Below are positions 49,013 through 49,337 of a stretch of DNA of 64,000 bases, piece after piece (within the stretch, counting starts at the first letter, position 1; the number at the start of each line of letters is the position of its first letter). The notes beneath the pieces were generated by a model that searched no databases, was not told the origin of the DNA, and saw nothing but the letters and a program-made list of their open reading frames with translations. A program made the position numbers and the translations under genes. The DNA is from Octopus vulgaris (Eukaryota): assembly GCA_951406725.2 (NCBI GenBank), contig OX597824.1, positions 15,500,001 to 15,564,000 on the forward strand, given 5' to 3'.

Positions 49013-49337
49013 AATGGAGTGAAACGCAGGTGTTATTCAAATTGTTTTACTTCCGACACATGTTTCGAAGATATCACTGGTATCATTCCAAAGGAATAAA
49101 ATGGTGTAAAACAATGTAATCTTCTCTTCAGGGAAGTGAAGAAATGAAACTCGTCAATAAGACATTTTAACAGAAAATGATGGATATGTATAGTGATTAA
49201 TTGAATGCTATTAAGATTGCTTCAAAAGGTGTTATAACGTCAAAGGTAGCCTATAGAAAGAGGAGGAGGAGTAAAGGAAAGAAAAACTAAATAAATGAGG
49301 AGTATATAACAAGGGAAAAATACACACATCTATTTAT
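49013..49337 (-). mobile_element. Second copy of the 25711-26420 PLE-like family, in (TA)n
   Basis: AAATGGAGT.AA.CGCAGGTGT...GAAACTCGTCAATA.GACATTTTA homologous to 25721-25880, with the same right end. Confidence 0.82.
49049..49137 (-). ncRNA. Type I hammerhead ribozyme with intact core and long stem II
   Basis: Minus strand: ACTTCC CTGAAGA GAAGAT ...about 46 nt... ATCTTC GAAA CATGTG TC GGAAGT. Predicted cleavage after GUC, between + coordinates 49055 and 49054. Confidence 0.82.

Follow-up and report, generated by a model that had tools for sequence, protein, structure and literature searches.

Hammerhead ribozymes in the terminal repeats of PLEs are an already known class. The minimal PLE hammerheads, as presented in the accessible parts of PMC4209133 and, for Lunse et al., of PMC6765202, combine that location with a weak palindromic helix III, a helix II over the canonical size (6-8 bp), an expected dependence on dimers and low activity. 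Hydra-clade PLEs are represented in the available part of PMC8557442 (File S2) by 25 families, in which stem II and its loop together span 10-24 nt; Hydra-1_Obim of Octopus bimaculoides has 22 nt (PMC8557442). The same file contains PLE-X1_sMoe of Selaginella, an endonuclease-less plant element at 28S rDNA, whose 9-bp stem II and 35-nt loop (53 nt in total) are marked as deviating from the canonical form. Finally, the Poseidon PAc hammerhead of Anolis, a member of a different clade from the element described here, likewise lies in a PLE terminal repeat; the portion of PMC11167929 available to us reports insertions from uncut RNA and two start sites that define a tail of 30-40 nt.

In this report, we examined 64,000 nt of Octopus vulgaris DNA (GCA_951406725.2, contig OX597824.1, 15,500,001-15,564,000; hereafter, the window), with a focus on its minus strand at 49049-49137. 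We consider it highly probable that this sequence, found in the terminal repeat of a PLE copy that is truncated at its 5' end and lies at a TA microsatellite, represents a type I hammerhead and likely a neutrally decaying relic, and that cleavage at the GUC in its source element would be weak, dependent on a dimer and likely assisted by the element's own protein. The traits of the minimal PLE hammerheads listed above recur here, dimer dependence and low activity as expectations. Unlike those motifs in the accessible descriptions (PMC4209133, PMC6765202), the octopus hammerhead has no extra nucleotide between A9 and G10.1, its arm comprises ~13 bp plus an inner hairpin, and its stem I has 6 bp plus a distal extension. 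The long-arm form is what is unusual here.

The hammerhead is 89 nt long (the reverse complement of 49049-49137). A sequence-only reading had laid it out as ACUUCC-CUGAAGA-GAAGAU...GGAAGU, with an intact core, a GUC triplet and a 46-nt extension of stem II, and this layout proved exact. Stem I (6 bp) joins ACUUCC at 49137-49132 to GGAAGU at 49054-49049; the core consists of CUGAAGA (49131-49125) and GAAA (49066-49063), the latter followed by CAUGUG and UC; and stem II (6 bp) joins GAAGAU (49124-49119) to AUCUUC (49072-49067), with the extension at 49118-49073. C17 is at 49055, and the predicted cut falls between 49055 and 49054. Every type I core position is in place (C3 U4 G5 A6 N7 G8 A9, G12 A13 A14, A15.1-U16.1, H17), and three helices surround the core, which is open at helix I. 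Helix III has only 2 bp in the monomer (P ~0.04 in the predicted fold), and the near-palindromic octamer ACAUGUGU (49056-49063) is predicted to form 8 bp between two hammerheads. The complete stem II arm (49067-49124, 58 nt) is built of 6 bp, a 2x2 internal loop, 5 bp, an asymmetric loop and a 7-bp hairpin; both further pairings that had been proposed for the insert (CAUUG/CAGUG and AUUCC-UUU-GGAAU) form in the predicted fold. Compared with shuffled sequences, the arm alone has z = -2.81 (1/200 shuffles equally good), and the whole 89-mer a modest z = -1.22. Beyond stem I, UUCUU (49139-49143) has a partner in the family at 49046-49042 (family AAGAA), which together make up the distal stem I extension.

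Fast natural hammerheads have a tertiary contact between loop I and loop II. The hammerhead at 49049-49137 lacks a terminal loop II close to its core; internal loops lie at a comparable distance. For 48950-49300, Rfam listed 14 weak matches (E up to 10), of which none was a hammerhead, and there was likewise none among the matches listed (150 of 216) for the whole window, which were chance matches only. The size of the arm is the likely cause of this miss, and absence from Rfam is a matter of detection, not a defining criterion for a type I hammerhead. The A and B subfamilies also have a core-like UUGACGAG (49157-49150, minus strand), which precedes the real core by ~25 nt on its upstream side; it reads CUGACGAG in some copies, and the GUUUC that follows it is able to pair with the core's GAAAC.

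The surroundings of the motif are those of a short retroelement insertion. The PLE copy occupies 49010-49310 on the minus strand (~300 bp), holds the 3' UTR and pseudo-LTR without coding sequence, and carries the hammerhead in its terminal repeat. It is 76-79% identical to both terminal repeats of L061, a near-full copy described below. At its 5' junction, an inverted fragment of the element's tail end (30-46 nt; 49307-49352, plus strand) matches L061 4999-4968 and 5498-5541 and runs into TA-rich sequence; at its 3' end lies the target, a (TA)n microsatellite (48964-49005).

A relaxed hammerhead descriptor run on the window gave four matches: 49049-49137 (minus strand), 26139-26224 (plus), 25756-25841 (minus) and an unrelated short one at 11681-11740. 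The paralog at 26139-26224 belongs to a younger subfamily and has the stem I that had been reported for it (ACUUUC/GAAAGU, with U-A at pair 2), a U4C core (CCGAAGA) and a stem II arm of 55 nt from start to end, versus 58 nt at 49049-49137. The hammerhead at 25756-25841 is identical to it and sits in a 233-nt perfect inverted repeat, within an inverted-pair insertion (25686-26032 and 26038-26423). This head-to-head pair of terminal repeats (25686-26436, 233 nt perfectly complementary) has one member that ends at the usual 3' site and another with a ~150-nt tail, versus the 30-40 bp reported for PLEs, and thus suggests two priming sites, one per DNA strand. The apparent ~150 nt also differs from the tail length given for Poseidon PAc in the available text of PMC11167929. 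The remaining match, at 11681-11740 (plus strand), is a separate hammerhead-like sequence with stems I, II and III of 6, 4 and 4 bp and CUGAAGA/GAAA. The window also holds a 242-aa frame fragment (51955-52683, plus strand) that matches zf-RVT (E 4e-06) and likely represents the C terminus of a further non-LTR retrotransposon, and many copies, in both orientations, of a dispersed ~200-250-nt repeat that is 80-96% identical among copies and likely a SINE-type family (e.g., 6118-6331, 7951-8172, 13956-14171, 20444-20713 and 33928-34372).

The genome (2.8 Gb, 227 contigs) is rich in relatives of these sequences. A first look yielded 3,205 candidates for the 49049-49137 stretch, of which the 40 scored are 89-96% identical to it, itself excepted; the paralog has 1,673 candidates, the best of them 98-100% identical. 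In longer sibling copies, the upstream sequence encodes a GIY-YIG endonuclease and an RT on the same strand as the hammerhead, and such an endonuclease frame lies upstream in 42/75 copies of the A/B cluster by tblastn and 38/75 by profile. In L061, direct repeats 2,861 nt apart and 97% identical flank an RT with DKT and YRDD plus a GIY-YIG domain at the C terminus (SIYQC...FYIGST); as in endonuclease-positive PLEs, the two domains follow one another in one frame, which in this copy is broken by a frameshift. An inverted piece at its 5' end and (TA)n on both sides complete the picture, so that pseudo-LTRs with a hammerhead, 5' truncation, an inverted 5' piece and an optional tail, the architecture of PLEs, are all represented. 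Pfam finds no family in the L061 frame, and the PLE call therefore rests on these motifs and on four full-length homologs of the L061 protein (28-30% identical over 97-99% of the query) that have Hydra-type motifs; a search of the PDB with the same frame gave nothing.

By its sequence, the parent appears to be a PLE closest to the Hydra clade. The DKG-to-DKT change of that clade is present (SDKTG in the L061 4330-4926 frame), the unit is short (2,861 nt, below 3 kb), and (TA)4 lies within 90 nt of the cut site in 42/75 copies; no CCHH is visible by eye in the alignment of the L061 endonuclease. It thus resembles the Hydra-clade PLEs of PMC8557442, as far as the accessible text describes them, in a type I hammerhead near the 3' end, a short unit with a C-terminal endonuclease, DKT, (TA)n and a short self-complementary helix III. 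Unlike them, it has no CxCx5C linker before the endonuclease in either octopus frame aligned (L061:2673-4355, minus; L064:7314-8165, plus), whereas 4/4 homologs do, and for this reason we file it as Hydra-like and not as a member of the clade. Hydra-1_Obim is, by eye, of a different family in both protein and hammerhead, judging from what PMC8557442 shows of it. The Neptune clade, our first guess, was dropped in favor of a Hydra-like assignment on the DKT motif and the homologs. The accessible part of PMC8557442 associates the CxCx5C linker with TA targeting. The octopus element inserts at (TA)n (42/75 copies) though it is devoid of this linker, and it would seem that (TA)n targeting is apparently accomplished without the motif proposed to guide it.

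How common is the long arm? We searched the genome with patterns made of the exact core, a gap and GAAACAYGTGTH, which test letters, not stems, and are limited to the loop III type of this family. For arms of ~41-70 nt, four patterns gave 1290, 188, 231 and 4687 matches (reversed controls 1, 0, 2 and 8), or ~6,400 together. The first of them is the pattern of this family, and its 1290 matches versus 1 rule out a chance occurrence. Arms of 71-100 nt gave 616 (control 13; these partly overlap other patterns), and 388 matches (control 17) had an arm of 10-40 nt. The arm is 53-59 nt long across subfamilies. The sequence-only reading was correct that the extension is present and that this stem II, being much longer than published ones, is atypical of minimal PLE hammerheads; it erred in taking the 46-nt insert as particular to this copy. 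An insertion unique to 49049-49137 is ruled out, since the arm is family-wide, and the paralog, with the same long arm together with U4C, shows that it is not special to this copy. Given the 10-24 nt of the Hydra families and the 53 nt of the Selaginella element in the accessible File S2 of PMC8557442, the octopus arm is atypical for its clade, with a published precedent among PLEs for its size. Literature searches covering openly accessible papers and few of their supplements listed no description of a long-arm octopus hammerhead, and a metagenome scan for relatives gave 148 pattern matches, 0 of them confirmed. Several unrelated repeat families (L067-L096, L137-L146 and L160-L186) share this core and loop III, but their long stem II arms (42-91 nt) are different; in the largest sampled of the unrelated long-arm families, 0/22 copies had a same-strand endonuclease frame upstream.

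Whether these structures have been under selection was addressed with 29 copies, hand-picked from 105 in three related clusters to cover the subfamilies. The reference structure was that of the 49049-49137 sequence, so the test favors that structure. Pairing was found in 86.6% of cells, compared to 79.3% in shuffled alignments (0/500 as high) and 32-50% with slid partners, and 57 cells were changed on both sides, compared to 24.5 in shuffles, cell-level measures that are inflated by the relatedness of the copies. The number of pairs with two-sided change (11) was within the shuffle range (143/500). Such changes affect 7/13 pairs of stem II and 0/5 of the inner hairpin. Unaided, RNAalifold predicted stem II only (10 pairs, 5 with compensatory changes), and it did not predict stem I on the same alignment. 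That stem II pairing is kept across diverged subfamilies likely reflects selection on the source elements.

Stem I had been offered as the evidence for such selection, on the grounds of its C-G to U-A change. The change is a genuine subfamily difference: among the 29 copies, 19 show U-A at pair 2 and 9 show C-G. An intermediate subfamily has C·A in five copies. A tree of the flanks alone, with 22 of the 36 rows intended for it, gives the nested order C-G, then C·A, then U-A, moderately supported. The substitution is one two-step event via a mismatch, and the amplified C·A shows that the mismatch did not prevent spread; as a single lineage event, the double change is thin evidence by itself. 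CpG decay was rejected as its cause, as neither changed base is in a CpG. The conclusion of selection on structure in the source elements is upheld across subfamilies, with stem II as the better evidence and stem I weak. Additional support comes from the distal stem I extension, which pairs with different letters in diverged subfamilies (UUCUU/AAGAA, UUUUU/AAAAA, UUCCU/AGGAA).

Under our preferred reading, the long arm would persist as a paired scaffold since a closed stem II is required by the core; with no loop I-loop II contact to preserve, the arm would be free to lengthen. An alternative is that the arm is a working module: either its internal loop, 6-7 bp away from the core, would dock on the one in the extended stem I, or the arm would bind the element's protein and thereby switch cleavage on. 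Several regularities are consistent with this notion: a mismatch or small loop occurs at stem II positions 4-8 in 14/14 subfamily summaries, with pairing resumed beyond it; C-G/A-U at stem II positions 9-10 is invariant in 29/29 copies; the distal stem I pairs are retained despite the different letters; and arm length is steady at 53-59 nt across subfamilies. However, none of the loop letters conserved in the known tertiary contact turned up, other families carry unrelated arms (45-91 nt), and the invariant pairs could be due to plain shared descent. We regard a functional role for the arm as possible but unlikely.

Loop III speaks to how the source element might cleave. Across subfamilies it reads ACACGUGU, ACAUGUGU or ACAUAUGU, and it always can pair with a second copy of itself; the predicted dimer helices have energies of -10.3, -6.0 and -7.0 kcal/mol, versus +2.4 as a hairpin. 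By these energy models, the retention of the palindrome points to cleavage as a dimer, and it fits the dimer model set out for low-activity, dimer-type PLE hammerheads in the accessible text of PMC4209133. In a tandem transcript (repeat-ORF-repeat), two hammerheads would exchange the palindromic strands of loop III and so build an 8-bp helix III, and cleavage of the source-element transcript would probably be weak, dimer-dependent and protein-assisted. Assistance by protein has been shown for Poseidon PAc, according to the available portion of PMC11167929, and is presumed by us for the octopus element. A young subfamily (L187-L216; 322 pattern matches) has U4C, G10.1·U11.1, a GUA triplet and, in ACAUAUGU, a restored perfect palindrome.

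The state of the core and of the insertion junctions raises another possibility, namely, that catalysis is nearly dispensable in this PLE lineage and that the fold survives chiefly for a structural or protein-binding role in the terminal repeat. The youngest subfamilies, whose copies are 98-100% identical, carry U4C (231 pattern matches have it), a change that lowers activity in vitro according to the accessible part of PMC3088659; a further subfamily adds G10.1·U11.1, and the one with the stem I C·A mismatch has spread. The junctions agree. All copies whose homology possibly starts at the cut site, or two bases earlier as a control, were classified, and 5' junctions at the cut site were not enriched (truncations 20/73 versus 15/53 at the control position, p = 0.50). 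Several of the 20 keep homologous letters or microhomology, and any true excess is smaller still. An excess that had seemed possible in a partial sample (30/73 and 30/53 copies: 11 versus 8) vanished upon full classification, and the first pattern for this test was dropped because it was swamped by the GUA-type subfamily (322 matches). There is no sign of cut RNA as the preferred template. This null agrees with PMC11167929, in the part available, where uncut RNA was the substrate, cleavage needed the element's own protein and hammerhead mutants did not impair insertion in vitro. Since the copy at 49049-49137 spans the cut site, the RNA that templated it would have been uncut or rejoined.

Yet C3, G5, A6, G8, A9, G12-A14, A15.1-U16.1 and a non-G17 persist while other letters diverge (most of these were in the search patterns), and U4C still permits viroid infectivity, as the accessible text of PMC3088659 has it. 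We judge dispensable catalysis to be conceivable and, like a functional arm, improbable; these two alternatives are not exclusive of each other. A source hammerhead that cuts weakly and as a dimer remains the reading that we prefer.

Turning to the copy itself, we compared 33 siblings from top-scoring loci, a sample biased to low divergence. Non-CpG changes are about as frequent in the core (6/327) as in the flanks (132/5600; p = 0.71), and the copies likely decay neutrally; the extension, with 22/1483 changes, falls nominally below the flanks (p = 0.045, uncorrected), a lower rate that strict neutrality does not predict. Two changes are private to the copy, one at 49084 and a G>C at 49044 in distal stem I, where 32/33 siblings have G. 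In energy-model predictions, made without Mg2+ or protein, stems I and II of the bare 89-mer fold with P above 0.9. With flanks (49040-49145), stem I has P 0.0, compared to 0.91-0.93 in sibling L009 with the same flanks; the predicted competitor is a hairpin (UCUUCA/UGAAGA, 49125-49142) that, given the 5' flank, ties up the catalytic core, and the active fold costs 6.9 kcal/mol. The private change at 49044 is thus predicted to unfold the copy. With 30-nt flanks, the predictions for most copies of the same subfamily also have no stem I.

These results bear on whether the host retains this copy as an active ribozyme that cuts one of its own transcripts. Its core letters and both proximal stems are intact, and the bare 89-mer is predicted to fold well. 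Nevertheless, 16/32 full-span siblings are just as fully intact, which makes its intactness ordinary; it has private changes and a predicted misfold with flanks; it has no tandem partner, its nearest relatives being 23 kb away; and no host reading frame was recognised near it. A host role is thus very improbable. The proposal that this is the best candidate here for an active ribozyme is not supported: half of the siblings match its intactness, the copies likely decay neutrally, helix III is of the 2-bp palindromic type, and the construct suggested for its assay (49040-49145) is the one predicted to have no stem I. The motif is a real but modest variant, slightly damaged and, by these models, predicted to fold worse than its siblings.

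Least credible of all is that the copy is a non-autonomous tandem retrozyme and not a fragment of a coding PLE. Short copies with no coding sequence are numerous, and animal retrozymes do carry type I hammerheads (PMC7229834), but the hallmark of non-coding head-to-tail tandem repeats of 170-400 nt is lacking in this solo copy, which is outside any head-to-tail array, the sampled copies are dispersed and variably 5'-truncated or in inverted pairs, and the longer ones continue into the endonuclease and RT frame, such that L061 contradicts this idea for the A/B subfamilies.

The likely relic at 49049-49137 is one member of a large family. Its arm, two to five times the published Hydra length, means that thousands of ribozyme motifs in this genome escape standard searches. 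A bolder proposition, which we hold to be quite unlikely, is that octopus PLEs contain thousands of hammerheads that neither Rfam nor size-limited descriptors can see. In these, an extended stem I and a stem II of 55-90 nt would together constitute a peripheral module of a new type, one that takes the place of the loop-loop contact or, by binding the RT-endonuclease of the element, sets off cleavage of the dimer; its stepwise evolution would be recorded in subfamilies that form a dated series. As to what PLE hammerheads do, the subfamilies already amount to a natural record of mutagenesis, in which a compensatory change went through a mismatch, loop III stayed palindromic, and the most recent spreaders have U4C in the core.
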